The notes under the pieces are model-generated. The model had not been told where the DNA came from, did no database searches, and worked only from the letters and a program-made list of their open reading frames with translations. The translations under genes and the position numbers were made by a program. Positions 4,328 to 51,991 of a DNA stretch of 64,000 bases are shown piece after piece. Numbering within the stretch: position 1 is the first letter of the stretch; the number at the start of each line of letters is the position of its first letter. Where the stretch lies: positions 11,772-75,771 of the IMG/VR virus record IMGVR_UViG_3300047476_001538; one strand, given 5' to 3'. This DNA is from an uncultured virus (IMG/VR IMGVR_UViG_3300047476_001538). Lineage: Duplodnaviria; Heunggongvirae; Uroviricota; Caudoviricetes.

Positions 4328-4354
4328 GCTTATTACCTACGGTTGTCAATCCAT

Positions 4355-7300
4355 ATGAATATACAAGAATTGTCTACGTTTAGCCTTCGTGACTCATTGA
4401 AGTTTCACGACGAACTCAATCCTGCTCTATGGGACGAACACGAGCAGTTGAAGCCCGAAGTCAGAGAAAAGCTGCTTCAGATTGCAGAGGATTTTCAGGA
4501 ATACCTTGGAGTCGACAATCTGGATCTTAAGGATATTACGTTGTCTGGCTCAAATGCCGCCTTCAGCTATAACAAGCACAGTGACATTGATTTACATTTG
4601 GTGGTGGATATGCCAGACGATGAGGTATATCGTGAGTTATTTGATGCCAAAAAGTATGCCTATAACGATCAACATGATGTAAAAATAAAAGGATCGCCCG
4701 TTGAATTGTATGTTCAAGACGCCAACGAAGAGCATTATTCTCAGGGTATCTATTCTGTGATGAATGACGAATGGATTGATGTTCCAAAAAAACGCTCATT
4801 GGACGTTGATGATAGCAGCGTAAAAAACAAGTTTGAGGACGTTAAACGTCACATAACTGATGCCATCAATTCAGATGACTTTGATACGCTCTCTGGTGTT
4901 CACAAGCGTATCAAAGCAATGCGCCAATGTGGATTGGAAAAGAATGGTGAGTTTAGTATTGAAAATCTGACGTTCAAGATGCTCAGAAACGAGGGATGGA
5001 TTGAGAAATTGCTCAATGCCAGAAACAAAGCTAAAGACAAAATGCTCAGTCTTGCTGAAAAGAACAAGAAGAAGCAAAAAAGAATATATGGGTTTAGCAC
5101 ACCAGAATTACTACAATCTGACGTAACCAATACTTGGGACGGTGTGTCTGATAGCACTCAAGATTTTTTGAATGAAGACGTAACCAATACTTGGGACGGT
5201 GTATCGGATAGTACTCAACAATTTTTGAATGAGAAAGATTCTGAATCTCATAAAGAGGTAATCAAGGACTTCATTTTGTTTTGTAAGAAATACCTAAAGA
5301 TAGCCAAGTTACCGAAAGTAACACTAAAGAAGGATGCTAAGTGGTCATCTGAACACAAGACGTTTGGTTACTACAATCCAAATGACAATAGCCTGACAAT
5401 CAATCTGGCTGGCAGAAACATTGTTGATTCGTTAAGAACCATTGGTCACGAATTAGTGCATTGTAAGCAATTTGAATCAGTAGATATGCCAACCAATTCT
5501 GGCGAAACCGGCAGTGCAGCAGAAAATCATGCTAACAGTGTTGCTGGCATACTAATGAGAGAATACGGACAACTCCATCCAGAATTATTTCAAATGCCAG
5601 TATTAGCAGAAGCATCAGGGTACATTCCAACGGCGGCGCAAGCACATGATCCGAGATTTGAAATGGCATTGAGTTGTGATGTTCATCCTGGTACATTGGG
5701 CAGAGTGGCTAACGCATTTGATTTGAATACTGATTCACAAGGTAAACCACAGATTGCTAATCCTAATGGCCGAGTAGTCAGAGAAAACTGTATTGAAGAG
5801 CAAACATTGTTTGAATCGTGGCAAGATTTCAAGAGTCAAGAAGAATTGATCGAAATCTTCGATAAAGAGGTTGTCTATGATTCCGTCAAGGACATGATTG
5901 AAAAATTTCACAATCGTAACAAAGAGTATGTTTATTCGCCATTCACTGATGTGGTTCAATCTCCGGCAATGAAGAGTAATGATTTATTTGCAGTACGTGG
6001 CAGAAATAAAAAAGACAAATCAATGGAGTATCATTTGGTCAGCACTCGCCATGAAAACGGCAAGATAGGTGATAGTTCACAATGGAATAATGAGGCCCTA
6101 AAAGATGCTATGAAGTTCGTTATTGAGGACGCAACCAACTTTGTCAATAAAGGCTCTCGTATTAAATTAATGACTGATGATGCTGCGTTGTATGATCAGT
6201 ATCTTAGAATTGCTAATCTGATGACACAACGCATCAATAGAGAAAGGCAACATGGCGGAGAATTTCAAGTAATAGAGGCTGGAAAGACTAATTCAATCGA
6301 TGGTCAATATTTAGATACTATTTTGATCAGAGGAACACCAACGAAAAAAATGGAGTCGCTTCGGAATGACCAAACCAAAACCAGCTACATCCCCAACGAT
6401 ATCAATAAGCTAACCTTTGAATCGTTTGATCACTATCGCCGTTGGTGTCAATCTCCAAAAACCAATAGCAACAGAAATCCAATGTATCATCCTAATAGAT
6501 ACCAAGGTATTTTTATAGACAGTAAAGATTTGCGTGAGACAAACGATATATTCACGAAAAGAAAGCAACAAGGAAAGGAATTTTCAAATGAATTCCTATC
6601 ACTTGATGATCGTGAAAATGTTGCTTTAAAAGTAGGTAATAAGATTTCTGTATTATCGTGTATCGTTGCACCCACTGATAAAATTAGCAGAATTGAGCTA
6701 TCCGGTTTCGTTACTCCTAAAGAGATAGCAAATCTACTGCTATCAACCGATGATAAGATTGATGCCATTGAATTTACCGATGGCACACAATATCCTGAAA
6801 AAGCACAAGAAACTATTGTAGATAATATAAACCTTGTCAATACTGTATTCTTTCCAGACAAACACACAGCAGATTATGCTATGACCGCAACTGAATTACT
6901 GTTATGGGGAATGGAAGGAAAAGGGTGGAAAATTGAGCGATACATGAGTGAATCTGCTGATAATTTGGAAGAATCACTTTGGGAAGAACTTCAGAATCAC
7001 AAAAGTGGTGATAATGTCAACAACTTCCAAAAATGGTTTGGCAATAGTAAAGTGGTTGACGACAACGGCAATCCTCTCAGAGTTTATCATGGAACAGCCG
7101 GTGATTTCCCGTCTTTTAGTTCAAAATTTCAGGGTAAAACAACCGGTGCTACTAGCTCCAAATCAGGATTCTTTTTTACATCATCACCAACTACAGCAAA
7201 ATCTTATGCTGACTATGCAGCATTAAATGCAAAAGTGCAACAACTATTGGATCAAGCTGATGCTGCTGAAAAGAAAGGTGATTGGGATTTGTATGATGAA

Positions 7301-10237
7301 AAGATTCAACAGGCCGAAGAACTTGACGCCAGTTTTGGTGATCCAAAAAACAGAGCGCAAGGGCAATCTACTATTCCGGTATTCTTATCTATTCAGAACC
7401 CAATAATACTTGATGCTCAGGGTGAAAATCCATCTGGTATTGGTGGTATTGATCCGTTGATTAAAAAAGCTAAATCAAGAGGACATGATGGCGTGATTAT
7501 CAAAAATTTTGATGATTCTGCTGGACTTTTTAATGATGTATCCGATCATTACATTGTATTTAATGCGAATCAGATAAAGTCTGCCATTGGCAACAAAGGC
7601 TCTTACAATCCTGATAGCGATGAAATTGTAAACGAAAATCAGAATAATTTTAAATCATGGTTTTCTGGATCTAAGATAGTTAATCCGGATGGCACACCAA
7701 AGATAATGTATCACGGAACACACAAAGATTTTTCTTCTTTTGTTAAGACCGCCGGATCAAAAGCAATATTCGTATCAAGTGATCCTAAATTTGCGAAGGA
7801 TTATGCTATTGGAAGTGGTGGCAATATTCTTCCTGTGTACATTCGATCAGTAAAGCCATGGGATTATTTGGATGATTCAGATAATCAAGCACTCCAACAC
7901 TATTTGGGATTATCCGACGAGGATATAAAATGGTGGCAGGGATTTGATGAGGGAGAACTTTACATGGCAGCAGTTAGGGGAAAATGGGATGCCATTGAAT
8001 CAGACGAATTTCAGAAATTTCTCCAATCAAATGACTATGATGGATTTTATGTTATCGAAAATGACGCTAGAAATTTAGGAGTATTTAATGCAAATCAGAT
8101 AAAGTCTGCCATTGGCAACAAAGGCTCCTACAATCCTGATAGCGATGAAATCGTAGATGAAGCTATCTCCAAAACCGGCGAGTATGGAAAAGTAGTAAAA
8201 ATAGTCAAGCAATCTATCGTAGGAGCGGTTCAACAATTCCAGAAAAGATACCCTGAAATCAGAGAAAGTAATATGTCGTTGAAGGAGCATTATTCGGCAA
8301 TGCAACCATTGCTTGAACGAAGTTTGGGTGACAATTTCAATATGTACTTCGACACGCCTGTTAGATTTGAAGAACTAAGTCAAGGTCGTGGACAATATAA
8401 CAATGACGGAACTATCACGCTCAGTAGCGATTTTACAAAAACTTTGACTCGGACATTAGTGGATGCATTGTTTGATTGGTCGCCTGAACCAGCCAGCCAC
8501 GATGAGCGGTTAAACAAATACGTCGATATTAGCAAGTTCACCGAATACGAAGAGTTAGCACAAGACCTCTTTCAAACGAGACCTCATGCAATCAATGACC
8601 TCGTTGAAACATTTATTCACGAATATGTTCACGCCGAACAGCACAAAAGAATAGCTCAGAAGAATACTAAAACAGGCAAATTTATGCCCAATCAATACTA
8701 TTCGTATTTGCAGCGCAATCGGGCTTTATTTGCTAAAGCCGTTCAGAACTTAGAAACTGATGAAGATTGGCAAGCGTATCTATCTTCTCCTCAAGAGATA
8801 ACGGCACACGCGCATGATCTTGCTAATAAAATAATACAAGGTGCTCTGTTTGGACAACAGATTGATAATATCAGTCCGGAAGAGGCTGATATTTCCATGA
8901 AAATACTAAAGTCCACCTTGCAGCAGGCGGCTAACTACAATGTACTACCCAAATACCAACAATATGATATCTTTGACCGCAACAACAAGCAACATAGAAA
9001 AATCGTTAATAGATTCTTGAAGACAGTGTATCAAGAAGTAGCTGCCGCTATTCAAACGCTACAAAATAAAGTTCAATCTGGTAATTTATCAGAATCACTT
9101 GGTTCACCTTATCCATTGAATCAAGGATTAAATCTTGATAGTGTTGTATCATATACATGGAAAGATGAAAATAATCTTAAAGGTAGTATCGGATTCATGC
9201 GAGGTGGATATGACGAAGATTGGGAAATAACATTCAATGTAGGTGGAAAATTTAATATTACCAATAAAGGTGATGCATTCAGAATATTCGCCACGGCTAA
9301 GGATGCTGTTAAAAGATTTATGACCACGCCGCAAGGTAAAGGAGCAGATAGAGTTTACTTCTCTGCCAAAACATCTGAACCAACCAGAGTGAAGCTGTAT
9401 GATAAGTTAGCTCAAATGATGGTGAAGAATGGATTCAAATTGCATCATACTGAAATGGAAGGCAATCAGAAGTATTATTACCTTGATACGCCAAATCAAG
9501 GTAAAGAAGTAAAAGAATCACTTGATAATACACTGCTTGAAGTATTAAAGAATCCAGTAGATCACAATTCATTTAGTGATCTATCAGATATGGTCAACTC
9601 ACAAAATAAAGGAAAAGCGATGAGCGGTCATACTAATGTTATGGCGACTCCAGAAATGAGGAAAGAAAATACATACATTATCAGATTCATGGATAATGAT
9701 CGTAATATTCAATATCATATCTGCACACTTGGAATGGATGGTGGTCAACGAAAAAAAGCATCAGATGTAGATCCAAAAATAGGATTGGATGCGTTGAATA
9801 TTATCTTTCATGATGCTAAGTTTTATCTTGAAAAGAAGATGCCAGTGTTGATCATAGCCCCAGATAATAAACGTAAACACAGTTATCTGAAAATGGCAAC
9901 ATTGTTAAAAAATCAAGTAGACAGTTCATTAAACATAGAAGATGTTGGGATGATAACAGGCGTTGATGGAGCAAGAGGACTCGGTTTCAAAATTGTTGAA
10001 ACTCAGTATAACAAGCTGACTGGAATTGATCCATCATTGGCAGAAGCACAAACAGTGGCCAAAATGATGCCAGCGGTCAAGCTGTGGAAGGCACGGGTAA
10101 AAATCAAGCAACCAAACTACATCGGATACGTAGAAGCTCAAGTGACTGCACCGGATATGCGCACTGCTCGTAATATGCTCAAGGCGCTCTATAATGTTCC
10201 GGAGCATGAGGTTGGATCAGTGACGTTGGTCAAGTGA
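4355..10237 (+). CDS. ~1960-aa polyvalent protein, probably virion-internal: Pol-beta NTase, two zincin domains, two ART-PolyVal-like domains and several unknown modules
   Basis: SGS..SDIDLH; HELVH (5447) and HEYVH (8618); two copies of NF.xWF..SK.V...YHGT...FNANQIKSAIGN; late box upstream. Confidence 0.85.
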   Translation: MNIQELSTFSLRDSLKFHDELNPALWDEHEQLKPEVREKLLQIAEDFQEYLGVDNLDLKDITLSGSNAAFSYNKHSDIDLHLVVDMPDDEVYRELFDAKKYAYNDQHDVKIKGSPVELYVQDANEEHYSQGIYSVMNDEWIDVPKKRSLDVDDSSVKNKFEDVKRHITDAINSDDFDTLSGVHKRIKAMRQCGLEKNGEFSIENLTFKMLRNEGWIEKLLNARNKAKDKMLSLAEKNKKKQKRIYGFSTPELLQSDVTNTWDGVSDSTQDFLNEDVTNTWDGVSDSTQQFLNEKDSESHKEVIKDFILFCKKYLKIAKLPKVTLKKDAKWSSEHKTFGYYNPNDNSLTINLAGRNIVDSLRTIGHELVHCKQFESVDMPTNSGETGSAAENHANSVAGILMREYGQLHPELFQMPVLAEASGYIPTAAQAHDPRFEMALSCDVHPGTLGRVANAFDLNTDSQGKPQIANPNGRVVRENCIEEQTLFESWQDFKSQEELIEIFDKEVVYDSVKDMIEKFHNRNKEYVYSPFTDVVQSPAMKSNDLFAVRGRNKKDKSMEYHLVSTRHENGKIGDSSQWNNEALKDAMKFVIEDATNFVNKGSRIKLMTDDAALYDQYLRIANLMTQRINRERQHGGEFQVIEAGKTNSIDGQYLDTILIRGTPTKKMESLRNDQTKTSYIPNDINKLTFESFDHYRRWCQSPKTNSNRNPMYHPNRYQGIFIDSKDLRETNDIFTKRKQQGKEFSNEFLSLDDRENVALKVGNKISVLSCIVAPTDKISRIELSGFVTPKEIANLLLSTDDKIDAIEFTDGTQYPEKAQETIVDNINLVNTVFFPDKHTADYAMTATELLLWGMEGKGWKIERYMSESADNLEESLWEELQNHKSGDNVNNFQKWFGNSKVVDDNGNPLRVYHGTAGDFPSFSSKFQGKTTGATSSKSGFFFTSSPTTAKSYADYAALNAKVQQLLDQADAAEKKGDWDLYDEKIQQAEELDASFGDPKNRAQGQSTIPVFLSIQNPIILDAQGENPSGIGGIDPLIKKAKSRGHDGVIIKNFDDSAGLFNDVSDHYIVFNANQIKSAIGNKGSYNPDSDEIVNENQNNFKSWFSGSKIVNPDGTPKIMYHGTHKDFSSFVKTAGSKAIFVSSDPKFAKDYAIGSGGNILPVYIRSVKPWDYLDDSDNQALQHYLGLSDEDIKWWQGFDEGELYMAAVRGKWDAIESDEFQKFLQSNDYDGFYVIENDARNLGVFNANQIKSAIGNKGSYNPDSDEIVDEAISKTGEYGKVVKIVKQSIVGAVQQFQKRYPEIRESNMSLKEHYSAMQPLLERSLGDNFNMYFDTPVRFEELSQGRGQYNNDGTITLSSDFTKTLTRTLVDALFDWSPEPASHDERLNKYVDISKFTEYEELAQDLFQTRPHAINDLVETFIHEYVHAEQHKRIAQKNTKTGKFMPNQYYSYLQRNRALFAKAVQNLETDEDWQAYLSSPQEITAHAHDLANKIIQGALFGQQIDNISPEEADISMKILKSTLQQAANYNVLPKYQQYDIFDRNNKQHRKIVNRFLKTVYQEVAAAIQTLQNKVQSGNLSESLGSPYPLNQGLNLDSVVSYTWKDENNLKGSIGFMRGGYDEDWEITFNVGGKFNITNKGDAFRIFATAKDAVKRFMTTPQGKGADRVYFSAKTSEPTRVKLYDKLAQMMVKNGFKLHHTEMEGNQKYYYLDTPNQGKEVKESLDNTLLEVLKNPVDHNSFSDLSDMVNSQNKGKAMSGHTNVMATPEMRKENTYIIRFMDNDRNIQYHICTLGMDGGQRKKASDVDPKIGLDALNIIFHDAKFYLEKKMPVLIIAPDNKRKHSYLKMATLLKNQVDSSLNIEDVGMITGVDGARGLGFKIVETQYNKLTGIDPSLAEAQTVAKMMPAVKLWKARVKIKQPNYIGYVEAQVTAPDMRTARNMLKALYNVPEHEVGSVTLVK
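5120..5233 (+). repeat. In-frame 57-bp tandem duplication
   Basis: DVTNTWDGVSDSTQ(D/Q)FLNE twice. Confidence 0.95.
7556..8155 (+). repeat. 75-bp direct repeat (7556-7630, 8081-8155) ending each ART-like domain
   Basis: gtatttaatgc.aatcagataaagtctgccattggcaacaaaggctc.tacaatcctgatagcgatgaaat.gta, 3 mismatches. Confidence 0.95.
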
Positions 10238-10263
10238 TAAATATGAGAAATGAGGAGATCATA

Positions 10264-11145
10264 ATGACTAGATCACTGTACGAAGACTTGTTAAAAGGAT
10301 ACAGAGACAATCTGATTCGGCGGCAGGCATTGACAGTCACTGAATCAAGTTCACTGAAATATATTCTGAAGATGGCTGGGATCAATCATTTGTTTGAAAC
10401 GACTTCTGAAGTTGATACATCAAAGTCAGGGTCAGAAAAAATACTTAACAGAAGATTGGTGGAATCAGAGATCATCGATGAGTTAAGAGGCGTTAAAAAA
10501 TACCATGATCTAACATCCGATCAATTGATGGCACAGATTGCTCAAGATTATAATTTGCAAATTTTAGGTTCTGGATTATTTGGCACAGTTATCCAGACCA
10601 AAAACCCCGACACCGTAGTAAAGGTATTTGAAAGTGATGATGCTTATTTGCGATTTTTAGAAATGGCAAACGCTCATCCTAATGTACATTTCCCAAAAGC
10701 CAAAGGATTGCCCAGACTTATGACTGCCTTTTACAAAAGGCACTCAATCCAGCCGGACAAATTCGTCGTGCTTGAATTAGAAAAACTATATCCATTGGAC
10801 GATGATATAGCTGATTTTTGTGAATCTCTGGCATATCAGACGATTGATGAGGAGCCACTGGTCCTACCAGATGGCTCGCAGAACTCAAAACACATGACAT
10901 ATGCACAACTGATTGGAGATTACCCGTGGATATCAACATTAAAACGGGCTATGAATATGATCATTGACTGGGACTTAGGAGAAAATGATATGAATGCGGG
11001 TAATTTTATGAGGCGGAAATACGGAACGATTGTTATTATGGACCCGGTTTATGATCCAAACAGCGTTGCTTGGTCAGTGGCAGCGTTGCCGGCAAACCAA
11101 CCAAAAAACGTACAGGGACCACATTATAGAAAAAAATCAATTTAA
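10264..11145 (+). CDS. Ser/Thr protein kinase-like protein (T7 gp0.7-like)
   Basis: LGSGLFGTV, VVKVF, NDMNAGNFM, IVIMDPV; GAGGAG RBS; GATAAATA at 10236. Confidence 0.8.
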   Translation: MTRSLYEDLLKGYRDNLIRRQALTVTESSSLKYILKMAGINHLFETTSEVDTSKSGSEKILNRRLVESEIIDELRGVKKYHDLTSDQLMAQIAQDYNLQILGSGLFGTVIQTKNPDTVVKVFESDDAYLRFLEMANAHPNVHFPKAKGLPRLMTAFYKRHSIQPDKFVVLELEKLYPLDDDIADFCESLAYQTIDEEPLVLPDGSQNSKHMTYAQLIGDYPWISTLKRAMNMIIDWDLGENDMNAGNFMRRKYGTIVIMDPVYDPNSVAWSVAALPANQPKNVQGPHYRKKSI

Positions 11146-11176: not shown

Positions 11177-11230
11177 AAAAACAGTTGACATTCTGATTTT
11201 TTCTGTATAATGCTTTTCATACAAACCAAC
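11177..11230 (+). promoter_or_regulatory. Repeated early promoter element, copy 1
   Basis: aaaaacagTTGACA-N15-TATAAT..catacaaaccaac; related copies at 12.95 and 47.15 kb. Confidence 0.8.
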
Positions 11231-11300
11231 GAGCAACATCAATCAGTGACGTTGGTCAAGTGATAATTCAGATAAATACTTCATTACTATATGAATTATT

Positions 11301-12980
11301 ATGTCACACTTCTCCAAAATCCTTGAATCACTGATGAACAATGATGAAACAACTGCTTATCAGTTGTTTCATGAATTCGTCGTGGAATCCAGTAGAGCAA
11401 TCTACGAAGAGAATCAACTTGATGAATACTTAACACCGGACGAAGAAGCAGAGGTAGCCAAGTGGAAGAAAAGAACACCCCAAGCGACAAAAGCGACCAA
11501 CCATTTCTTCGGCAGTGATGAGATAGAAGATATCTATCGCCCATTGGTAGATTTAGATGGTAAATCCGAAGTCCATGCTGCTATTGAACAAGATATTGGT
11601 ATTCCTATTTCAAGTGATGATTATAAGAAAGGAATGGTAAAGGACAAAGATGGCAAGCAAATCCGTATTGGTAGTGCAATAAGTGACCCAAAACTGCGAA
11701 CTGCGTTTAAGACCGATCCGCTAAGAAAAGGGCAATCAACAAAAGCGGCATCAAGAAATGTTAGAATTACTCGTAGTCCCACTGGAGTGGCCGGACAAAC
11801 ATCTCATGGGCAATCATGGGAAGGTCATTCTTGTAAGAATTTCAACGATGGCTCAAATCGGCGCTATCTCTGTCACGAAGTAGAACACGGCACAGTGGTT
11901 GCTTATCTTACCGACAAAGAATCAGGAGAAGAAATAGCAAGAGGGACATTTCAGCCATATACGAACAAAGAAGGCAACTACCTATACAGATTGGACTCGT
12001 ACTATGGTGAAAATAATGCTCAGTTCAAGAAATACTTGAAGCAATTGGAAAGAGAACTATCACAACCGCATTCTGGTAGTCTGATGTATGACATACATCC
12101 CGATGTATATAATGATAGTAGAGTTAAAAAATCTCTTCCTTATGGTGCAACTGCCGAGGATTATAAAAACTCCCTTGAACAAGGAGAATTGGAGTTAAAT
12201 GAAATACCAGAAGAATTACGAACGCCAGCGATATGCAAAATCGCTGTTAGTCAAGATGGCACGGCATTGAAATATGTGCCAGAAGAATTGCCAGAATACG
12301 CAAAACTATGCAAAATCGCTGTTAGTCACGACGGCTGGGCATTGAAATATGTGCCAGAAGAATTACCGGAATACTTAAAGATATGCAAAATCGCTGTTAG
12401 TCAAGATGCCTGGGCGCTGCAATATGTGCCAGAATACCCAAAACAAATGAGAACACCAACATTATGCAAAATCGCTGTTAGTCAAGATGGCATGACGTTG
12501 GGAGATGTGCCAGCAGAATTGAGAACACCAACGTTATGCAAAATCGCCGTTAGCCAAAATTGGCGGGCGTTGTATTATGTGCCGGAAGAATTGCCAGAAT
12601 ATGCAGATATATGCAAAATCGCTGTTAGTCAAAAAGGGTTTGACTTGAGCCGTTTACCAAAAGATTTGAGAACACCAACGCTATGCAAAATCGCTGTTAG
12701 TCAAAATGGACTGGCGTTGCGACTCGTGCCAGAAGAATTGCCAGAATATGCAGATATATGCAAAATCGCTGTTAGTCAAGATGGCAGGGCGTTGGTACAG
12801 GTGCCAGAAGAACTAAAAACACCGGAAATATGCAAAATTGCTGTTAGTCAAAATGGTGTGGCGTCGCAATATGTGCCAGAAGAATTACAAAATGAAGTGC
12901 TCAGATTTTTGTACAACAAGAAAAACAACAAGGATAATTTTTCTAAAAAACAGTTGACATCATCAACATTTTCTGTATAA
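11301..12980 (+). CDS. Late protein: shared N-terminal leader, variable middle domain and 9 DUF4116-like repeats
   Basis: N-terminus nearly identical to 45486; CKIAVSxxxxALxYVPEEL repeats; GATAAATA at 11271. Confidence 0.85.
   Translation: MSHFSKILESLMNNDETTAYQLFHEFVVESSRAIYEENQLDEYLTPDEEAEVAKWKKRTPQATKATNHFFGSDEIEDIYRPLVDLDGKSEVHAAIEQDIGIPISSDDYKKGMVKDKDGKQIRIGSAISDPKLRTAFKTDPLRKGQSTKAASRNVRITRSPTGVAGQTSHGQSWEGHSCKNFNDGSNRRYLCHEVEHGTVVAYLTDKESGEEIARGTFQPYTNKEGNYLYRLDSYYGENNAQFKKYLKQLERELSQPHSGSLMYDIHPDVYNDSRVKKSLPYGATAEDYKNSLEQGELELNEIPEELRTPAICKIAVSQDGTALKYVPEELPEYAKLCKIAVSHDGWALKYVPEELPEYLKICKIAVSQDAWALQYVPEYPKQMRTPTLCKIAVSQDGMTLGDVPAELRTPTLCKIAVSQNWRALYYVPEELPEYADICKIAVSQKGFDLSRLPKDLRTPTLCKIAVSQNGLALRLVPEELPEYADICKIAVSQDGRALVQVPEELKTPEICKIAVSQNGVASQYVPEELQNEVLRFLYNKKNNKDNFSKKQLTSSTFSV
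12205..12890 (+). repeat. Coding tandem repeat, nine units of ~72-78 bp
   Basis: Near-invariant atgcaaaatcgctgttag..gtgccagaagaatt framework. Confidence 0.95.
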
Positions 12981-13012
12981 TACCCTCCATACCAACCAAC
13001 AACGAGGAAAAA
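12946..13012 (+). promoter_or_regulatory. Repeated early promoter plus RBS, copy 2
   Basis: TTGACA (12954)-N16-TATAAT (12976), then ctccataccaaccaacaacGAGGAaa. Confidence 0.85.
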
Positions 13013-13016
13013 TCAG

Positions 13017-14028: not shown

Positions 14029-14967
14029 ATGGGAGGCAATGTTTTCGGTGATAAAACCACCTCAATCAAAAAAGAGTGGATTGAACCCACATTAAAAGCC
14101 TATTTTAACGAGCTAGCTGCTATCTTTCCAAACAAGAAAGATATTCTCAATCTTGAGAATTTTACGCTGCTGGGATCAGCCGGCAAAAAATCAATCAGTG
14201 GCGATATTGATTTGGGTATTGATCTATCAATGATTCTTGATGAACCAGTATCGGATGAATCTATCATTGAATGGAACATTGATCCTATTGCTGTAGTAAA
14301 AGAAACTGAATTACTTCAAAAGAGAGCAAAAACAGCCACACCAGAGCAATCCAGAAAAAAAGCGTTCTTTAAGCTGATAACCAAGTATATCAATGATCAC
14401 GCAAATCACATTTATTGCGACGAAAAGAAAGTATCAGAAGGAAATATATTCAGCTTATTCCCTCAGTACAATGTACATAATGTAGTACAGGATAGCGCCG
14501 TTCAAATTGATTGGATGGTTGGCAATCTTGATTGGTTAAAATTTAGCTATTATTCTACTGTATATCCAGCAGATTCCAACATCAAGGGACTTTGTAGAAC
14601 ACAATTGATTCTCTCTATGTTCCAATCGGTTGGGCTATCGTTCAATCATGTTAATGGCGTCAAGGATAAAGAAACAGGTGAAATCCTTGCATCAACCTCA
14701 AACGATGCTATCAATCTGCTCAATCATAAATTAAATCTGAATCTGACCGAAGAAATCACTCAGAACTATTATTCACTCTATGAACAGGTGAACCAGTGCA
14801 ATCGGCGTGATACTATTCTGAATACATTTTTACGGATTCTTGATTCAACCAGAGTTGGAGTGCCGGATAATCTGAGAGAAGAATGGCGACAACGAAAAGA
14901 ATCCTTGAATTTAACAGGAAAATTTTTACCAGAAAATGATCCAATGCGTGAATTTTTATCGGAGTAA
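14029..14967 (+). CDS. Pol-beta-superfamily nucleotidyltransferase-like protein
   Basis: LGSAGKK..SGDIDL and VQIDWM. Confidence 0.75.
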   Translation: MGGNVFGDKTTSIKKEWIEPTLKAYFNELAAIFPNKKDILNLENFTLLGSAGKKSISGDIDLGIDLSMILDEPVSDESIIEWNIDPIAVVKETELLQKRAKTATPEQSRKKAFFKLITKYINDHANHIYCDEKKVSEGNIFSLFPQYNVHNVVQDSAVQIDWMVGNLDWLKFSYYSTVYPADSNIKGLCRTQLILSMFQSVGLSFNHVNGVKDKETGEILASTSNDAINLLNHKLNLNLTEEITQNYYSLYEQVNQCNRRDTILNTFLRILDSTRVGVPDNLREEWRQRKESLNLTGKFLPENDPMREFLSE

Positions 14968-14972
14968 TTTTA

Positions 14973-15839
14973 ATGTCAGGTGCAACCGGCGCGGAAAGAA
15001 TCAGAAGTCGTGATGATTATGTTCGCTTTTTGGAATCATATAGCAATATAATCTCAGCTTTTAATGGATTCAGATCACTTCAATCATCGGGTAGCTATTG
15101 CTCCGATTTATCAAAACAATCGTTTGGTGATATTGATATTGTGGTTCACTTTGAATCTGAATTATCAAAAAAAGATTTGAAACTACAATTGATTAAATAT
15201 CTTGAGGGATTGCCATCTGATACTATTGTTGAGTTTACTTCAGAAAAGTATAAGGGAAAGAGAAGCTATAATTCTGGTGAGATTGTTACTGTGAGGTATC
15301 ATGATGCTGACTTGGGTTACAGTGTTCAGATTGACAACATTATCGCATTGTCGGAAAACGAAGCTGAATTTAAGGTATCGTTCTTGAATATGCCAGCCGC
15401 AAAACAAGGATTGATTTTAGGTTTAGTTAAAACCGCACTGCTAGAAAATGATGCGAAGGGAATCTTTGATATTCTGAATATTCAAATAGAACCATTAAAT
15501 GATAATCAGGAATATGAATTTAATCTGAGTTCATCTGAGCTTCAATTAAGGAAGGTAACCTATATTCCTAATACATTCACTCAGAGTGATCGTGAAGTGA
15601 TTTGGCGCTCTGTTGACTTTGATGATGTTCTTAGCGTGTTGCCTCAGTATAACTTGAATCAGGGATTTGAAACATTATTAAATGTTGCTAAATACACTAT
15701 ACAGCATCCTCGCAGTTTTAATAGAGTTCGTGGTGTTTTTTCTTCAATGATAAGTGTAAAATCAGGTGAGAAAAATACTCCTAAAGGAAATGAAAAGCTA
15801 CATTCACTTATGTTGGTTGAGGAGGCATTTTTACCATGA
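14973..15839 (+). CDS. Pol-beta-superfamily nucleotidyltransferase-like protein
   Basis: SGSY..FGDIDIVV and VQIDNI. Confidence 0.75.
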   Translation: MSGATGAERIRSRDDYVRFLESYSNIISAFNGFRSLQSSGSYCSDLSKQSFGDIDIVVHFESELSKKDLKLQLIKYLEGLPSDTIVEFTSEKYKGKRSYNSGEIVTVRYHDADLGYSVQIDNIIALSENEAEFKVSFLNMPAAKQGLILGLVKTALLENDAKGIFDILNIQIEPLNDNQEYEFNLSSSELQLRKVTYIPNTFTQSDREVIWRSVDFDDVLSVLPQYNLNQGFETLLNVAKYTIQHPRSFNRVRGVFSSMISVKSGEKNTPKGNEKLHSLMLVEEAFLP

Positions 15840-15847: not shown

Positions 15848-16783
15848 ATGAAAATCAATGATATTATTAAAGAAGACGTATCGCAACAAGAGCTATCACA
15901 AATAGAAGTTTTTGCTAATAGATTATGGCATAAGTATGGCATAGATATTGCATTTACAAAGCACTTTTTAGATAGAGTAAACGACTCAAGAAATAAAAAA
16001 CCAATCTCAGCCGCAGAATTAGTTCGCCTATTCAAAAAAGAATACGAACGGAATGGCAAGAAAATAGCTTCGTTGGACAATGGCGAACAAGGCGTATTTA
16101 AAGACACCTCCACGGATATCAACATTCCATTTGCTGTGAGTGATCGGAATAACGATCACGAATTATTTGCAAAAACAATAATGCGAAAAAAGAACTTCGC
16201 ATCCTCAAGTCCAGTGTTTGCTGTAGAAGAAGATCCATGTTGGAAAGGCTACAAACAATATGGAACCAAGAAGAAGGGCAAGCGCACGGTTCCAAATTGC
16301 GTTCCCGTTAGCGAAGATTATGATGAATACAATGATGAAGCTGGAATGGCAGATAATAATCTTGAGACCATCAAGCGGGCCGCAGAAGGGTTAGATGACA
16401 TTATTGCCGGCGACAAAAATCTACCAGAGTGGTGTCAAGAAAAAATCGCAGTAGCCAAGTATATTTTAGTATCCGTTTGGGATTATATGCTCAGTGAAGA
16501 AAATCAAGAGATTGATGAAGATTGGCAAAAAACCAACAAAAAAGACAAAACTGATGGCATGAGCAAAAAAGCGGTAAATGCTTACAGAAGAGAAAATCCC
16601 GGTTCAAAATTAAAAACAGCGGTGACCACGAAGCCGAGCAAACTAAAGAAGGGTAGCAAAGATGCCAATAGAAGAAAAAGTTTTTGTGCTCGCTCAAATG
16701 GTCAAAGAAAACAGCATAACATAGATTGTTCTAAGACGCCGGACAAACCAATTTGTAAGGCGAGGAAACGGTGGAATTGTTAG
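15848..16783 (+). CDS. Modular protein with internal-protein-like leader; possible RelE/RegB-like N domain and DUF6321-like C domain
   Basis: MKINDIIKE; FTKHFLDRVND; CWKGY..VPNCVP; RRENPGSKLK..RRKSFCAR. Confidence 0.7.
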   Translation: MKINDIIKEDVSQQELSQIEVFANRLWHKYGIDIAFTKHFLDRVNDSRNKKPISAAELVRLFKKEYERNGKKIASLDNGEQGVFKDTSTDINIPFAVSDRNNDHELFAKTIMRKKNFASSSPVFAVEEDPCWKGYKQYGTKKKGKRTVPNCVPVSEDYDEYNDEAGMADNNLETIKRAAEGLDDIIAGDKNLPEWCQEKIAVAKYILVSVWDYMLSEENQEIDEDWQKTNKKDKTDGMSKKAVNAYRRENPGSKLKTAVTTKPSKLKKGSKDANRRKSFCARSNGQRKQHNIDCSKTPDKPICKARKRWNC

Positions 16784-16795: not shown

Positions 16796-17803
16796 ATGAG
16801 AGCAAAACAGTTTGTTTTTGAATCCAAGGAACAAGAGTGGCGATATATCTGGAATCTAAAAGATTCAGAATCCCTGACTACTGAAGAATGGTGCAGAGTA
16901 GTTGAACGACATCACTGCGGAACTCTGATTGAGAATGACGTGAGTGATAACACGAGAATATTTGAAATGCTCAAAGATTTCGGAGTGGCCAAGCCCGAGG
17001 TAGGCGAGCATTATATTCCAGTCACTGTTATGGCAGCGTCTAGCTTGATGATTTACGACATTGACGGGCGTTGTCCCCCAGAGAGTAAGCCTCGTCTGTT
17101 GGAGTTGGTGAAAATTAAAAACGGCGATTATTATTTTGACAACAACGGCAGAATTCAACGTTATCCACAAGAGTGGCAATCTAAGGTAATGGTAGCAGAG
17201 ACTCTGTGCATTCCAAACCTTGAACAGTACAGGGAAATGGTTACCATGCTGCGGTTGGCCACTGACTCGGATAAGTTCAATAACTTATTGACCGAATCCT
17301 TGACCAGTCCATATCCTCTGAAACTGGAATATGCTGATAGAAGCAAGATTGATTATTCGTTCAGAACTGATTCTGATGCCAAAGGCGATATTGAATTCTG
17401 GTCAAAAGGTCAAAATTCAGAATGGGAAATGGCCTTTACTATCGACGGCAAGGTTGAACACCAAAATAGAAATACGGGTGAGGTTTTCAGAATATTCGCC
17501 ACCGCCGCTAAAAGCGTTCAAATGTTCTTGAATACACCCGAAGGTTATAATATGTCCACTCTGAACATAGAGGCCAGTACTCACGAATTGTCAAGAGTTA
17601 AACTCTACGATAGAATGGTTCCTATACTATCTAAGCTGGGATTGAAGTTTGCCGGCACGGACAATGTCGGACAATACAAAAACTACCACTTTGTCAATCC
17701 TGATAATCCACCTCAAGCAATATCTGAACCCAATAAAAACTGGCGAGATAGTGCTGACTGGGAATTTATCGAAAATATCCGATCTGAACGGAGAAAACAA
17801 TGA
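16796..17803 (+). CDS. Modular protein with internal-protein-like leader and recurrent PYP/FRIF domain
   Basis: MRAKQFVFE; LTE-SLTSPYPL..GEVFRIFAT..SRVKLY. Confidence 0.8.
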   Translation: MRAKQFVFESKEQEWRYIWNLKDSESLTTEEWCRVVERHHCGTLIENDVSDNTRIFEMLKDFGVAKPEVGEHYIPVTVMAASSLMIYDIDGRCPPESKPRLLELVKIKNGDYYFDNNGRIQRYPQEWQSKVMVAETLCIPNLEQYREMVTMLRLATDSDKFNNLLTESLTSPYPLKLEYADRSKIDYSFRTDSDAKGDIEFWSKGQNSEWEMAFTIDGKVEHQNRNTGEVFRIFATAAKSVQMFLNTPEGYNMSTLNIEASTHELSRVKLYDRMVPILSKLGLKFAGTDNVGQYKNYHFVNPDNPPQAISEPNKNWRDSADWEFIENIRSERRKQ

Positions 17804-18493: not shown

Positions 18494-19765
18494 ATGTACG
18501 ATCCACTAATGAATGACATTCTCGCCAAGCTCAATTCAGTTGAATCTGCTGCTTCAAAAAGAAACAACACACCCAATCAACATTCTGGTAACGAAATGTT
18601 GGATATTCTAAAAAGGTTTGATTTGGCAGAATCCGGTAATAGCAAACTCACGCCTGTCAATGTCAAGCATGGACTGAATAAACAACAAAAAGCAGTTGGA
18701 CAAGTAGGACCAGAGTTCAAGCCGAAGACGACTAAGGTGCTTACTGCGCCAACTGACCCAAAAAATCCGTTCGCTGGTAAGTTAGTCGGCGGAAGTGAAT
18801 CTCGGCGCAATACCAAGCCAATGATTGACGAGGCAGAAGTATCAGAAGATTTATTATCAGATATCAAGAAGAGTCTATCGGATTATATAAAGCAAATTGA
18901 TAGCATTGAGAAAAAAGACACGGACCTGAAAAAGAAGGACAACCGAGATACCGACCTAAAAAAGAAAGACAAACGAGACAGAGATTTTATTGTTCGGAAG
19001 GTAAAAGAAGACCCCACTCAGGAAAATCCGATTATTCAACCTAAGCCGGCCTCATTGGTCAATCCAACTGTTGCTGATACCGGTGCCAATCAGACTCCCA
19101 CCGTAGATACTGATTCTTCAAAAGGTGTTCAACCAGTTGGCGAGACGCTAAACGATCCTTACAAAGTAGTATTGCGTGAGAACAGTTCTAGGTTTGTGTC
19201 ATTCGTTGGGCATACCGACACAGGCGCAGAAATAGATGTTTACTTTACGAAACACGAAGACGATGACGAATATAACACATGGGAAGTGGAATTTGGTGTA
19301 AATGGGTCGTTTAACATCACTAACAAGGGCGACGCCTTTAGAGTGTTTTCCACTGTTTCGTATGCATTACAAACGTTTCTCGGTATGCGTCAAGGTCTAA
19401 AGGCAGATCGTATTTATTTTACAGCAAAAGAACCATCAAGAATCAAGCTATATCAGCGTCTTTCTAAAATGATCGTTGATTACGGGTTCAAGCGTGTACC
19501 ACTATCTGAGCCGTGGAAGTTTCTATTTGATCTTAATGAAGATGGCAGTAGTCAAGATAGATCATTTACCGCTGAATCAATCAAATCTCACGAATGCAAC
19601 GGCAAGGTATTTGAAATCGTAGAGGGTGAGCATGGTGGATTTCATATTCGCCACAATAATAAATTATCACCATCTAAATTCAAGACATTTTTAGAGGCTG
19701 ATACCGCACTTCAATTATTCACGCATCGTTTATCCACTACCGGTGATTATAGAGAAGAACAATGA
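18494..19765 (+). CDS. Modular probable virion protein with PYP/FRVF domain
   Basis: VGE-TLNDPY..FNITNKGDAFRVFST..EPSRIKLY, shared with the polyprotein. Confidence 0.75.
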   Translation: MYDPLMNDILAKLNSVESAASKRNNTPNQHSGNEMLDILKRFDLAESGNSKLTPVNVKHGLNKQQKAVGQVGPEFKPKTTKVLTAPTDPKNPFAGKLVGGSESRRNTKPMIDEAEVSEDLLSDIKKSLSDYIKQIDSIEKKDTDLKKKDNRDTDLKKKDKRDRDFIVRKVKEDPTQENPIIQPKPASLVNPTVADTGANQTPTVDTDSSKGVQPVGETLNDPYKVVLRENSSRFVSFVGHTDTGAEIDVYFTKHEDDDEYNTWEVEFGVNGSFNITNKGDAFRVFSTVSYALQTFLGMRQGLKADRIYFTAKEPSRIKLYQRLSKMIVDYGFKRVPLSEPWKFLFDLNEDGSSQDRSFTAESIKSHECNGKVFEIVEGEHGGFHIRHNNKLSPSKFKTFLEADTALQLFTHRLSTTGDYREEQ

Positions 19766-41354: not shown

Positions 41355-42050
41355 ATGAATTTTTCCTTCGCATTCGATGTTGACGGCACTTTGACGTTAA
41401 GTCGTCAAAAAATTGATTCGGATTTTGCAGAGTGGTTTCTCAATTGGGTCAAGAAGCATAAGGTATACATTGTTACTGGCAGTGATTATGAAAAAACTGT
41501 AGAACAATTGGGACAAGAGATATGTGATTCGGTGGCTGGTATCTTCAATTGTTCTGGTAATGCTTTTTATATAAAGGGCGAATTACAATCATCCAATGAA
41601 TTTAAGCTAAACGACAGCCAAATGGAGATATTAAATCGTTATTTGTCTAAGAGTCCATTTCCTCTGAGAACCGGAAATCACTTTGAACAACGACAAGGAA
41701 TGTGTAATTTTAGCGTGGTTGGAAGAAATGCCACCATAGAAGAGCGGCAACAATATTCTGATTATGATGGTCGGGTTGCGGAACGTCAGCGTATTGTTAC
41801 TCAATTTAAGCATTGTTTTCCTGAGTTGGACGCAGTTCTTGGTGGTGATATTAGTATTGATATTTTTCCGAAGGGCAATGATAAGAGTCAAGTTGCTGAA
41901 AAATTGAAGCCATTTGTTTATTTTGGTGATCGTGTATTTCCGGGTGGAAATGATTACACTATTGCTAAGGAAGCAGAGGCTCATTATAACGTGAAAGATT
42001 GGCAAGAAACTCGGAGGATTATAGAATTGTATTACAATGAGAGCATATGA
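41355..42050 (+). CDS. Eukaryotic-type phosphomannomutase (HAD-IIB)
   Basis: FDVDGTLT, TGSD, NFS.VGR, GGDISIDIFPKG.DK, FGD..GGND. Confidence 0.9.
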   Translation: MNFSFAFDVDGTLTLSRQKIDSDFAEWFLNWVKKHKVYIVTGSDYEKTVEQLGQEICDSVAGIFNCSGNAFYIKGELQSSNEFKLNDSQMEILNRYLSKSPFPLRTGNHFEQRQGMCNFSVVGRNATIEERQQYSDYDGRVAERQRIVTQFKHCFPELDAVLGGDISIDIFPKGNDKSQVAEKLKPFVYFGDRVFPGGNDYTIAKEAEAHYNVKDWQETRRIIELYYNESI

Positions 42051-42570
42051 ATTTCTCAATGAGGTTTTAAATTCCGATGTACCCACAACAACCGATGATG
42101 ATTTAAGAAAATCAATTATTCAAACGTATGGTAAGAATATCATCTCTGGGCATACTTCTGTTTGGCAATCTGAAATAATGAAAAAAACCGGCGTGTGGGT
42201 TGTGAAAATAATGGATCGCTCTCGGCAGATTCAATATCATATTATGTCAGATGATGTTGAAGCAGGAGATGTAAAAACCGCAGATCAAATTGATTCCAAA
42301 ATAGGATTAGATTGTATGAACATTATTGCCAAGGATGCCTTGAGTTCCTTGAAAAACGGATATCCTGTGATTATTCTTGCACCAACCGAAGATAAAATAA
42401 TGTCATATAGTCAAATGGCAAAAATGCTATTGAGGTCAAAGAAAAGCGAGTTTAAACTGACCGAGCCATTTACTACATTGGGACTTGATAATATCCAAAG
42501 ATGGGGCATTAAGATTTTTGAAAACTATATTCCTAAATTGTCTGATGTGAAGTATGCACAGAAAAGATAA
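42037..42570 (+). CDS. Protein with internal-protein-like leader; stand-alone copy of a polyprotein module
   Basis: MRAYEFLNE; IQYHI..KIGLD..NII..DA..PV.I.AP. Confidence 0.8.
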   Translation: MRAYEFLNEVLNSDVPTTTDDDLRKSIIQTYGKNIISGHTSVWQSEIMKKTGVWVVKIMDRSRQIQYHIMSDDVEAGDVKTADQIDSKIGLDCMNIIAKDALSSLKNGYPVIILAPTEDKIMSYSQMAKMLLRSKKSEFKLTEPFTTLGLDNIQRWGIKIFENYIPKLSDVKYAQKR

Positions 42571-42578: not shown

Positions 42579-43217
42579 ATGAGAGCGCATGAATTTATAA
42601 ATGAACGTGAGGAACCCATCAGTATTGGACCAAAAGGCAAACAAATGGTCGAATACGATGGTCTTGTATTACAAATAAAAGATGATGGTGTTACCGTTAC
42701 CGTCCATGCTTATCCATCTATAGATGATGCTCAAAATTATAAAAACACAATGGCGTATGTAGTATTTGATCGTGATCATAATACCTTAATTGCCGATGAT
42801 CTTGCAGTATATGATCCATACAAAGGACAAGGCGTTGCGAAAAAAATGTATGATTATATTAAATCCCTTGGATTTCGCATTTTAGCTAGCGATGATCAAA
42901 CAGCGGCTGGAAAGCATTTTTGGGAGAAGAATAAAGGCAACGACGGGATTTGGGAATCAGAAGAAGAAATCATCAACGAGCTAACTTTTTTTGGCAGTCA
43001 ATGTACTAAGGACTGCTCCGGACATCGCTCTGGCTACCTTTGGTCTCGTCGCAAAAATGCTCAACAGGTTCCACAATCACATAGTCCATCATTTAATAAA
43101 GGTGCTGCGATTGGTATTCAACATATGCGCCAAGGTAGGAACCCAATCGGGGCAAGCGGTATCCGTGGTCAACGTGGTCGCTACAGAAAATTCATTCCGG
43201 GAAAAACAGACGAATAA
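42579..43217 (+). CDS. GNAT acetyltransferase-like domain plus Cys motif, with internal-protein-like leader
   Basis: MRAHEFINE; YKGQGVAKKMY..QTAAGKHFW; INE-L..CTKDCSGH; GATAAATA at 42566. Confidence 0.75.
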   Translation: MRAHEFINEREEPISIGPKGKQMVEYDGLVLQIKDDGVTVTVHAYPSIDDAQNYKNTMAYVVFDRDHNTLIADDLAVYDPYKGQGVAKKMYDYIKSLGFRILASDDQTAAGKHFWEKNKGNDGIWESEEEIINELTFFGSQCTKDCSGHRSGYLWSRRKNAQQVPQSHSPSFNKGAAIGIQHMRQGRNPIGASGIRGQRGRYRKFIPGKTDE

Positions 43218-49552: not shown

Positions 49553-50092
49553 ATGAGAGCAAAGGAACTGTTTGAAAAGTTGAATCATTACAACGACGGC
49601 ACAAGAACTTTGTTTGAAAGCATTGCTGTACCAGAAGTCAATCAAGCTCTTATAGATTGGAACAAACATCAACACAACGGAGTGTTGATAGGCGGTTGTG
49701 CTCTTAGCTTTTACGTCAGACCAAGGACTACAATGGACGTTGATGTTCTTTTTTTAACAGACGATTCGATACCAAAAGAAGTCAGTGGTTTTAAAAGAAC
49801 AAGACCTTCTGCATTTCAACATAACAAAACACATGTTGGGATTGAACTCGTCACTTCACTGTTGATAGGAATATCACAAGAATTAACTCAAAAAGTTTTT
49901 GATACTGCGATGATCTCCGACAATGTTAAAATCGCAAGTCCATCCGCTCTTGTTGCATTGAAGCTACATAGATTTAATCGCCAAGATCAAGCTGACATAG
50001 AAGAATTGATGAATCATTATACCATCGATTTACAAGATTGGCCACTGTCCGAAAAGGCCAAGGCGCATTACGAAAAAGTACTGACTTGGTAA
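49553..50092 (+). CDS. AbiEii/MenT-like nucleotidyltransferase with internal-protein-like leader
   Basis: MRAKELFE..LFE; IGG.A....RPR.T.DVD; LVALK..R.QD..D. Confidence 0.8.
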   Translation: MRAKELFEKLNHYNDGTRTLFESIAVPEVNQALIDWNKHQHNGVLIGGCALSFYVRPRTTMDVDVLFLTDDSIPKEVSGFKRTRPSAFQHNKTHVGIELVTSLLIGISQELTQKVFDTAMISDNVKIASPSALVALKLHRFNRQDQADIEELMNHYTIDLQDWPLSEKAKAHYEKVLTW

Positions 50093-50768: not shown

Positions 50769-50839
50769 CGCCCGATAAATATGAGTAATCGAAGAGGAAA
50801 AATTATACTGGTTGATTTGTTGATGATAAATAATCAATA

Positions 50840-50913
50840 CGGCCTTGACGAGATTCGAACTCGTAACCTTCCCATTAGTCAAGCAGGCGCTCTGTCCATT
50901 GAGCTACAAGGCC
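50840..50913 (-). tRNA. tRNA-like gene with aberrant anticodon arm (nominal GAC/Val, uncertain), no encoded CCA
   Basis: GGCCTTG/CAAGGCC, GCTC/GAGC D-stem, ACGAG-TTCGAAT-CTCGT; promoter TTGACT-N17-TAATAT at 50948-50920. Confidence 0.75.
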
Positions 50914-50996
50914 GTGTCTATATTACACGATTATCATCAGGCAGTCAAGGTAAATTTTTATGGCAGTCTTCGGCGTAGATAAATAAGATTTATAAT

Positions 50997-51071
50997 GCCT
51001 CTATAGTTTAACGGGAAAAACAAGGGATTTGTAACCCCTAGTTCCCGGGTCAGTTCCGGGTGGGGGCTCCA
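50997..51071 (+). tRNA. tRNA-Thr(TGT) with non-canonical T-loop
   Basis: GCCTCTA/TGGGGGC-T-CCA; anticodon 51030-32; T-loop GTCAGTT. Confidence 0.85.
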
Positions 51072-51077
51072 TTTAAG

Positions 51078-51882: not shown

Positions 51883-51895
51883 AATAACAGTTTAT

Positions 51896-51979: not shown

Positions 51980-51991
51980 CATTAAAAATAC

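Follow-up and report, generated by a model that had tools for sequence, protein, structure and literature searches.

A 1960-residue modular protein of an uncultured jumbo phage is probably a prohead-protease polyprotein

Introduction

Why would a phage string together in a single gene a series of modules that also occur as genes of their own, and how could such a chain be put to use? The question is raised by a gene in the window (the whole 64,000-nucleotide stretch of DNA analysed here, positions 11,772 to 75,771 of IMG/VR record IMGVR_UViG_3300047476_001538), which encodes a protein of 1960 residues. Polyvalent proteins, which join several effector-type domains, are common in phages and plasmids. 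As to their deployment, self-cutting by a zincin is the sole published idea that we found in the accessible open-access literature. In phage T4, the capsid targeting sequence (CTS) has ten residues, is sufficient to load foreign proteins into proheads, and is removed by the protease gp21, which cuts after L/I-X-E (PMC9026906). We propose that the 1960-residue protein is a variant of the polyvalent proteins that probably acts as a polyprotein of a prohead protease of the T4 type. The evidence for this proposal includes Glu-ending motifs at the module boundaries, module gains and losses in relatives that respect these motifs exactly, and a CTS-like leader on the stand-alone versions of the modules.

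Results

The gene and its modules

An earlier note on this DNA, made from the sequence alone, had described a polyprotein of about 1960 residues at 4355..10237; the 1960 codons are open, and every module and x-E motif that it listed is present. The open frame extends over 4343..10237, and the ATG at 4355 is taken as the true start because about 108 of the 121 family members begin with MNIxEL. At least ten modules can be recognised from Pfam, PHROG, internal paralogy, AlphaFold and stand-alone homologues.

4355..10237, + strand: polyprotein gene, 1960 residues plus stop
4355..4369, + strand: N-terminal pentapeptide MNIQE, I-x-E then L, the middle residue varying across the family; predicted local distance difference test (pLDDT) below 50 for residues 1-18
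4370..5059, + strand: module 1, nucleotidyltransferase (NTase), residues 6-235, ending S-L-A-E235; folded over residues 19-238
5060..5233, + strand: disordered linker with two tandem 19-residue spacers, each ending FLNE (E274, E293)
5234..5611, + strand: module 2, small zincin (zincin 1), residues 294-419, HELVH at 365-369, ending V-L-A-E419; folded over residues 298-412
5612..5854, + strand: module 3, 'SGYIPT...ANPNG' motif, residues 420-500, ending L-I-E500
5855..6361, + strand: module 4, diverged IQYHI type, residues 501 to about 669
6362..6973, + strand: module 5, 'YRRW' module, residues about 670-873, with the endings Y-M-S-E866 and L-E-E873
6974..7636, + strand: module 6, first ADP-ribosyltransferase (ART) of the ART-PolyVal family, residues 874-1094, ending V-N-E1094; PF18760 at 81.0 bits (cut-off 31.2)
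7637..8161, + strand: module 7, second ART-PolyVal, residues 1095-1269, ending V-D-E1269; PF18760 at 80.6 bits (cut-off 31.2)
8162..9094, + strand: module 8, second zincin (zincin 2), residues 1270-1580, HEYVH at 1422-1426, ending L-S-E1580
9095..9541, + strand: module 9, PYP or DUF6934-like, residues 1581-1729, ending L-L-E1729; Atlas score 0.92 to viral DUF6934 clusters
9542..10045, + strand: module 10, IQYHI, residues 1730-1897, ending L-A-E1897
10046..10234, + strand: module 11, C-terminal domain of 63 residues, 1898-1960

The predicted nucleotidyltransferase matches phrog_36119 (6e-47), scores 20.8 bits against PF01909, just below the Pfam cut-off of 21, and has weak Foldseek matches to CdnE, AadA and MNT (best E 9e-3). 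Both putative zincins carry the HExxH motif and score 15.4 and 15.2 bits against DUF6782, below its cut-off of 27. In an alignment of 27 sequences, H365, E366, H369, E390 and N391 of zincin 1 are invariant, and its model has weak Foldseek matches to the minigluzincins 4jiu and 4jix (probability 0.98-1.0) and to IrrE, with E values of 0.03-0.06. The number of effector-type domains falls within the 2-15 of polyvalent proteins, and the ART-PolyVal domain (PF18760) is present in two copies. As the earlier note had stated, the IQYHI module (residues 1729-1891) recurs alone, in the open reading frame (ORF) 42037..42570 (34% identity, E 4e-24), and the diverged copy that it placed near 5.9-6.3 kb is found at residues 492-649 (5828-6301), matching the same ORF at E 2e-4. 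The PYP module, for which the note gave no second copy, recurs in the ORFs 16796..17803 (E 1e-24) and 18494..19765 (E 8e-23).

A word-indexed search in which 7997 candidates were scored gave 358 relatives of 1078-3430 residues, many of them on contigs of 300-345 kb, and a pattern scan of IMG/VR gave at least 554 polyprotein loci. Residues 1 to about 480, comprising the NTase, linker, zincin and GYIPT motif, are common to 119 of the 120 relatives listed, and any one later part is covered by just 3-11 of them; module 5 is represented by about 9-11 high-scoring segment pairs (HSPs), and its Y[LMI]SE ending is also found in P0005-P0007. By manual count, about 80 of the 120 contain Amidoligase_2; sigma-70 region 4, glycoside hydrolase 19 and GNAT domains are also present, and ART-PolyVal is found in only two. 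Effector and lysin domains of this kind are characteristic of polyvalent proteins delivered by the virion (PMC5512222). Against 50,697 phage records, megablast of the gene gave no match, and in tblastn the NTase and ART parts alone matched, with no cultured relative of the polyprotein.

Glu junctions between the modules

The boundary Glu residues are 5, 235, 274, 293, 419, 500, 873, 1094, 1269, 1580, 1729 and 1897. The motifs named in the earlier note were located at these residues: FLNE at 274 and 293, LAE at 419, LIE at 500, LEE at 873 and VNE at 1094 and, in the C-terminal half, VDE at 1269, LSE at 1580, LLE at 1729 and LAE at 1897. Except where P3 is V, the junctions fit the published T4 gp21 specificity. 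The SLxE ending of module 1 is kept in 112 of 121 family members, and the internal spacers, which form a 57-nucleotide tandem repeat (5120-5232, 2.0 copies, 91% matches, TRF), close with (D/Q)FLNE. Both ART modules are closed by an 81-nucleotide repeat (7556-7636 and 8081-8161, 94% identical), the last codon of which encodes Glu.

Among the 119 occurrences of the module 3 motif in 121 family proteins, Glu stands 3-4 residues upstream of GYIPT in all 119, P3 is L, V, I or F in 101, P2 is any of 13 different residues, and P1' is S, G or A in 118. As judged from the aligned sequences, the conserved sites show the pattern of a motif with an x position, P1 and P3 being fixed and P2 variable. The wider family was surveyed by all-against-all BLAST of the 121 proteins, counting edges that were internal in both partners and marked by at least five HSPs, with the motif within four residues of the edge. 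[LIVMF]xE was found at 310 of 609 homology-block starts (51%) and at 394 of 1131 ends (35%), the figure for positions drawn at random being 16%. Replacing E at P1 by D, Q, K, S, N, T, R, A or G gave 6-18%, which did not exceed the respective random values, the enrichment being for E only.

Furthermore, module insertions and deletions in relatives start and stop exactly after xE. In L004, which is 94% identical, PVLAE|ASGYIPT has become PVLSE|, then 348 residues comprising two modules, then AIME|ASGYIPT, so that the insertion lies exactly at E419|A420. The second ART is missing from both L004 and P0002, where the junction reads ...IVDE|SIS. P0003 carries a 176-residue insert exactly between the two spacers, bounded by YLNE| and MAE|DVTSSW, and is without the PYP and IQYHI modules and without either ART. 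P0005 has PIVE|SRLNE| after the zincin, and then an ART.

As a separate observation on L004, its polyprotein gene is broken after the first spacer by a 398-residue ORF (L004:4576-5945) with repeated 'YNNG..F[IV]PGTEP.GW' units. The ORF had no Pfam hit, and an Rfam scan of the split gene gave no intron family; it could be a homing-endonuclease-like insertion or a genuine split of the gene at a junction.

Stand-alone module genes and their leader

The stand-alone copies of the modules, both in the window and in metagenomes, begin with a 9-residue leader, M-[RK]-A-x-E-F-[ILV]-x-E. The genes of the window that bear on this are the following.

42037..42570, + strand: stand-alone IQYHI paralogue, leader MRAYEFLNE then V
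16796..17803, + strand: two-module protein, leader MRAKQFVFE|S, then a module, LLTE|SLTSPYPL and the PYP module
18494..19765, + strand: protein with an internal PYP module, preceded by PVGE|TLNDPY
42579..43217, + strand: leader-bearing gene, MRAHEFINE|R, with weak GNAT hits
15848..16783, + strand: leader-bearing gene, MKINDIIKE|D, with DUF6321 at the C-terminus

The T4 record gives the N-terminus of IPIII and IPII as MKTYQEFIAE, followed by A, and the leader agrees with this CTS at 8 of 9 positions if K/R, T/A and I/L are allowed. When 1.84 billion representatives were searched by phmmer with residues 1270-1960, 455 matched at E <= 1e-3, and the 150 listed among them were examined. Among the matches listed, each module of the C-terminal half also occurs alone: zincin 2 in proteins of about 300-350 residues, PYP in about 140-180, IQYHI in about 170-190 and the C-terminal domain in 60-69. 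In the same listed matches, 74 of the 79 proteins with an N-terminal module have [LIVMF]xE within their first 16 residues, against 549 of 1581 control ORFs of related loci. When the alignments were roughly projected onto the modules, the leader Glu lay within three residues of the module start in 33 of 42 PYP and 7 of 8 IQYHI proteins.

In the stand-alone forms the last Glu of the leader stands directly before the conserved beginning of the module, the place that the xE Glu holds in the polyprotein. For zincin 2, MKVYEILNE|AISLT corresponds to IVDE|AISKT in the polyprotein; for PYP, MRAWEFLTE|SFDSPYPY to NLSE|SLGSPYPL; and for IQYHI, MRTNEFISE|VIDRPV to TLLE|VLKNPV. Stand-alone genes for the C-terminal domain, of 60-81 residues, are present in at least 19 related loci, with representatives starting MRSKEFVIE|SAKLW.... 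In the IQYHI alignment, a single Glu column is common to the leaders and to the internal junctions TLLE|VLKNP and ELIE|IFDKE. On the evidence of these alignments, the leaders and the internal junctions are equivalent.

The leader is not confined to these modules. In 81 related loci, six-frame translation gave 2400 ORFs of 80 residues or more, spurious ones included, and 117 of them start with M[KR]x(2-5)[FILVM][LIVF]xE, typically in the form MRAxEF[ILV]xE. As a DNA pattern, the strict leader with Ala at position 3 had 14 matches in the five complete related genomes and none in the reversed control, and several of these matches are located downstream of the polyprotein gene at a distance of no more than about 10 kb.

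Looser versions of this start are also seen. The window has 84 + strand ORFs with 70 or more residues, and by manual reading 12 of these begin M-[KR]-[AI]-x-[ED]-[FILV]-[ILVF], at 15848, 17800, 19762, 35619, 36239, 37157, 42037, 42579, 49553, 50169, 52563 and 53166; several such starts are without the closing xE, for example MRAHEFITPESD and MKISEIITNP. If the leader is indeed a capsid targeting signal, the set of packaged proteins could be large. No Shine-Dalgarno sequence was seen upstream of the leader genes in the window, the starts of which have A-rich codons. A different N-terminus is carried by the paralogues 11301-12980 and 45486-47135, which have DUF4116 repeats (1.2e-48) and begin, over about 36 residues, MSHF[ST]KILESLMNNDE.... 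It is 44% identical over 57 residues (E 2e-10) to the N-terminus of the product of L085:571-1431, a gene that directly precedes the one for the head maturation protease in a related genome, and this common N-terminus may be a prohead-core targeting domain.

Structure predictions

AlphaFold2 was run on residues 1-482 with 27 sequences (mean pLDDT 67, predicted template modelling score (pTM) 0.32). The domain parsing that the earlier note had suggested places the first sites in disordered linkers: domains fold at 19-238 and 298-412, and pLDDT is below 50 at residues 1-18, 239-297 and 413-426, the segments of E5, E274, E293 and E419. E235 is at the end of the last NTase helix. Foldseek with this N-terminal model gave nothing at E <= 0.001.

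For the C-terminal half, MAFFT aligned the shared leaders and misplaced the modules, and the stand-alone IQYHI protein was modelled instead (pLDDT 79, pTM 0.73). Fold matches to this model begin at residues 10-16, past the leader. The best Foldseek match had an E value of 2.7e-3, with none at or below 1e-3, and there was no Pfam hit; VIA gave Z scores of 6-7.5 for many GNATs, the top row (Z 8.0) being an RNase E domain. On the basis of the model, the IQYHI fold is tentatively GNAT-like.

Head genes of related phages

In four of five complete related genomes (323-364 kb), a Peptidase_S77 protein of the T4 gp21 type is encoded (84-91 bits, cut-off 27), which also matches phrog_207, 'head maturation protease', at 4.5e-56. 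A scaffold-like gene and a gp23-type capsid gene adjoin it in the T4 order (gp21, gp22, gp23). Just ahead of their conserved core, the capsid proteins of these relatives have Y-L-[KR]-E|N or L-S-E|S. When they were aligned with T4 gp23 by MAFFT, this site fell about 10 columns from L-T-E65|A, beside a 31-column gap; the alignment makes it plausible that the site corresponds, if inexactly, to the T4 E65 cut.

Discussion

The prohead-protease reading and the points against it

That the protein is probably a prohead-protease polyprotein is argued from what the sequences show: its architecture, the presence and conservation of sites that coincide with module boundaries, and a protease gene in the relatives. 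In the process that we envisage, the polyprotein would be made with the head proteins and would enter the prohead core together with the leader-bearing proteins. A protease of the T4 gp21 type would then cut the exposed linkers at about 11 places, each time behind the Glu of [L/I/V]-x-E, freeing about ten folded products, with the short spacers and leaders being lost. The predicted products are the nucleotidyltransferase, the small zincin, the GYIPT motif peptide, a two-module piece, two ADP-ribosyltransferases, the second zincin, the DUF6934-like module, a possibly GNAT-like module and the 63-residue domain. They would remain in the capsid, be injected alongside the DNA and act on the host. 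Since the leader ends in the same cleavage motif as the junctions, fused and separate forms would yield identical mature proteins. It may even be, and here we put the chance at somewhat under even, that in a large uncultured clade of phages of about 340 kb the CTS-like leader and its Glu site serve as a universal joint, by which effector genes are fused and split with their mature products unchanged.

A number of findings weigh against this reading. The earlier note had held that the prohead protease cuts the protein into about ten effectors; the xE motifs at boundaries, the CTS-like leaders and the S77 protease in four of five relatives lend this partial support, and packaging, cleavage, the enzyme responsible and injection are proposed by analogy with T4. 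The match of domain boundaries and xE sites holds for the boundaries defined by stand-alone homology, rearrangements and AlphaFold linkers; between modules 4 and 5 (about residue 669/670) there is no canonical [LIV]xE. The polyprotein contains 37 [LIVFM]xE motifs, most of which are therefore not boundary sites. V at P3 (VNE, VDE) goes beyond the published L/I rule of T4, P3 is Q, T, A or K at 18 of the 119 family sites, and the homology-block edges are non-independent, the proteins being related. The N-terminus of the polyprotein, MNIQEL, differs from the 9-residue leader and resembles only the start of T4 Alt, MELITEL. In the projection, the leader Glu was within three residues of the module start in just 46 of 79 proteins overall, with 6 of 23 for zincin 2 and 0 of 6 for the C-terminal domain; by eye, the misses are indels, the Glu directly preceding the conserved AIS[LV][ST] or KLW start. 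The leader in the stand-alone IQYHI model is a separate helix (residues 3-12, mean pLDDT 65) rather than a free tail, and the leader DNA pattern was found in none of Atu_ph07, Phosso, fHe-Yen9-04, Munch and T4. With regard to the enzyme, PF03420 had no match in the 75.8-kb, 21%-complete record (CheckV) to which the window belongs, so that the protease is postulated from relatives at about 50% identity, and one of the five complete relatives, G003, had neither an S77 nor a Gp23 match. Finally, the polyprotein gene is surrounded by replication and repair genes (RNA ligase, endonuclease VII, DNA polymerase) and not by head genes. This neighbourhood fits a cytoplasmic role, yet in the T4 record ipII, ipIII and alt likewise sit amid non-head genes, namely denV, lysozyme e and DNA ligase.

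Alternative explanations

The alternative that survives best, which we nevertheless regard as unlikely, is that the protein cuts itself, one or both of the internal zincins cleaving the xE junctions and perhaps the leaders of co-packaged proteins, in the capsid or after injection. To our knowledge, a specificity for Glu at P1 with a hydrophobic P3 is not typical of zincins. Zincin 1 does lie within the conserved core of 119 of the 120 listed relatives, is probably active, to judge from the invariance of HExxH, E390 and N391, and has minimal zymogen peptidases (4jiu, 4jix) as its closest weak fold matches; moreover, in the proposal of Iyer et al. 2017 (PMC5512222) polyvalent proteins are processed by zincin-like metallopeptidases (MPTases). 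However, Glu at P1 and a hydrophobic P3, with P1' free to vary, are what the literature gives as characteristic of serine proteases of the gp21 type (PMC9026906, PMC5694885). The same kind of site is found in the capsid protein and scaffold of the relatives, the stand-alone leaders match the T4 CTS that gp21 removes, and the AlphaFold model leaves the linkers disordered with none placed in the zincin.

It is less probable still that there is no processing, and that the product acts as one giant multidomain protein in which the xE motifs are relics of former leaders or favoured linker or recombination joints. Some polyvalent proteins, namely the N4 virion RNA polymerase, ArdC and TraC1, are delivered without being processed (PMC5512222), the 81-nucleotide repeat at the ends of both ART modules shows that recombination has occurred at joints, and the joint alignment of all leaders by MAFFT reveals a shared portable sequence able to drive fusion. 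Relics should decay, yet P1 is Glu in 119 of 119 sites with P3 hydrophobic and P2 free, Asp and eight other residues are not enriched at P1, and most joints keep the cleavage part of the leader alone, without M-[RK]-A-x-E-F. It is very improbable that the protein is an early or middle cytoplasmic one which is not packaged, its leader being some other signal, for instance one that helps to start translation where there is no Shine-Dalgarno sequence or one that directs the protein to a place within the infected cell. This would suit the replication genes around it, the A-rich, Shine-Dalgarno-less starts and the 12 of 84 ORFs with leader-like starts, several without the final xE. A translation preference, however, cannot account for E-F-[ILV]-x-E at positions 5-9 or for the same motif inside polyproteins, the leader agrees with the T4 CTS at 8 of 9 positions under the substitutions allowed above, and virion delivery has been associated with ART-PolyVal and with polyvalent architectures (PMC9503650).

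Comparison with known systems

If the prohead-protease reading is right, the protein, a polyvalent one by definition, works like several T4 internal head proteins (IPI-III, Alt) strung together. The stand-alone leader MRAYEFLNE almost equals the MKTYQEFIAE of IPIII and IPII. The N-terminus MELITE|L of Alt, an ADP-ribosyltransferase that T4 packages and trims at both ends, resembles MNIQE|L, and genes like those for gp21, gp22 and gp23 follow one another in the relatives as they do in T4. The T4 internal proteins are single modules, each with its own leader, whereas about ten modules are fused here, with internal sites and CTS-like spacers; the leader has 9 residues instead of 10, and the ART is of the PolyVal and not the Alt family. 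The present polyprotein is known from sequence alone.

With the polyvalent proteins (Iyer et al. 2017, PMC5512222) it shares ART-PolyVal, putative zincin-like peptidase and NTase-type domains in one polypeptide as well as the predicted co-delivery with DNA and processing into pieces, the difference being that the published proposal is autoprocessing by the zincin. In phiKZ-like giant phages, where ejection and inner-body proteins include phiKZ gp175 and SPN3US gp245, a gp21-related protease cuts many head-internal proteins after the Glu of a three-residue motif, and conserved N-termini behave as targeting sequences do (PMC9026906, PMC5694885). In those phages, by contrast, the motif is S/A-X-E and propeptides of more than 100 residues are discarded, and the accessible parts of these papers do not describe a chain of enzymatic modules separated by sites. 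The phage P1 proteins DdrB and DarA and the N4 virion RNA polymerase are large packaged proteins with MPTase domains, DdrB and DarA being processed (PMC5512222); as described in the accessible text they undergo one cut or none and are without a repeated Glu-specific junction motif. In the open-access literature, as far as it is accessible, we found no description of prohead-protease sites between the domains of a polyvalent protein, nor of this leader.

The case ties polyvalent proteins to the best-understood packaging and maturation system, the CTS and gp21 of T4, by a sequence rule that is simple and testable. The family is also a big one, with at least 554 loci in IMG/VR and with 455 clusters counted for its C-terminal modules alone. 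If the prohead-protease reading is true, it would explain why the same modules occur both fused and solitary, the polyvalent proteins of the clade would be prohead-protease polyproteins, and from the rule for leaders and junctions one could predict, with no more than sequence to hand, which proteins an uncultured giant phage injects. The leaders and linkers would also be natural parts for loading cargo into T4-type capsids.

Source phage and further observations

The source is taken to be an uncultured jumbo phage distantly related to T4 because the family-B DNA polymerase in the window has 42-48% identity with its counterparts in Atu_ph07, in Phosso and in Rak2-like giant phages, and the polyprotein gene is attributed to a phage of about 340 kb with T4 and Rak2 kinship. 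Neither a protease, a scaffold nor a capsid gene was found in the 75.8-kb record, including the 11.8 kb upstream of the window, which is without head genes. That upstream part (L098:77-6730) holds a tandem family of seven paralogous ORFs of 101-148 residues with the N-terminus MIEY[TI]VKV..NG.R.WYLN.K.HREDGPA.

Small nucleotidyltransferase-like genes near the polyprotein gene are 14029-14967, 14973-15839 and 49553-50092, two of the three having GDIDL/GDIDIVV motifs by eye; gene 49553 matches DUF6036 (2.6e-5) and has the leader-like start MRAKELFE. Downstream of the polyprotein gene, a repeat (10216-10251 and 11242-11277, 89%) comprises the last 20 or so bases of the gene plus GATAA..., its copy lying 1 kb further on, and a 48-nucleotide repeat (11199-11246 and 12969-13016, 75%) flanks the next gene. 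The genes 10234-11145 and 11301-12980 look like inserted cassettes because they are missing from the close relative L004.

Four tRNA genes lie at 50839-52168, Val-gac on the - strand and Thr-tgt, Asn-gtt and Gly-gcc on the + strand. The sequence GATAAATA is found 13-30 nucleotides upstream of several gene starts and also of tRNA-Thr and tRNA-Asn, at 4320, 10236, 11271, 42566, 45456 and 50774-52209. KATAAATA occurs at 18 sites in the window against 11.5 expected, a number reached by 2 of 100 shuffles. KATAAATA was considered as a late promoter; it precedes the polyprotein gene and the tRNA genes too, and was therefore not taken as evidence of late expression. The element is possibly a promoter element of the source phage.

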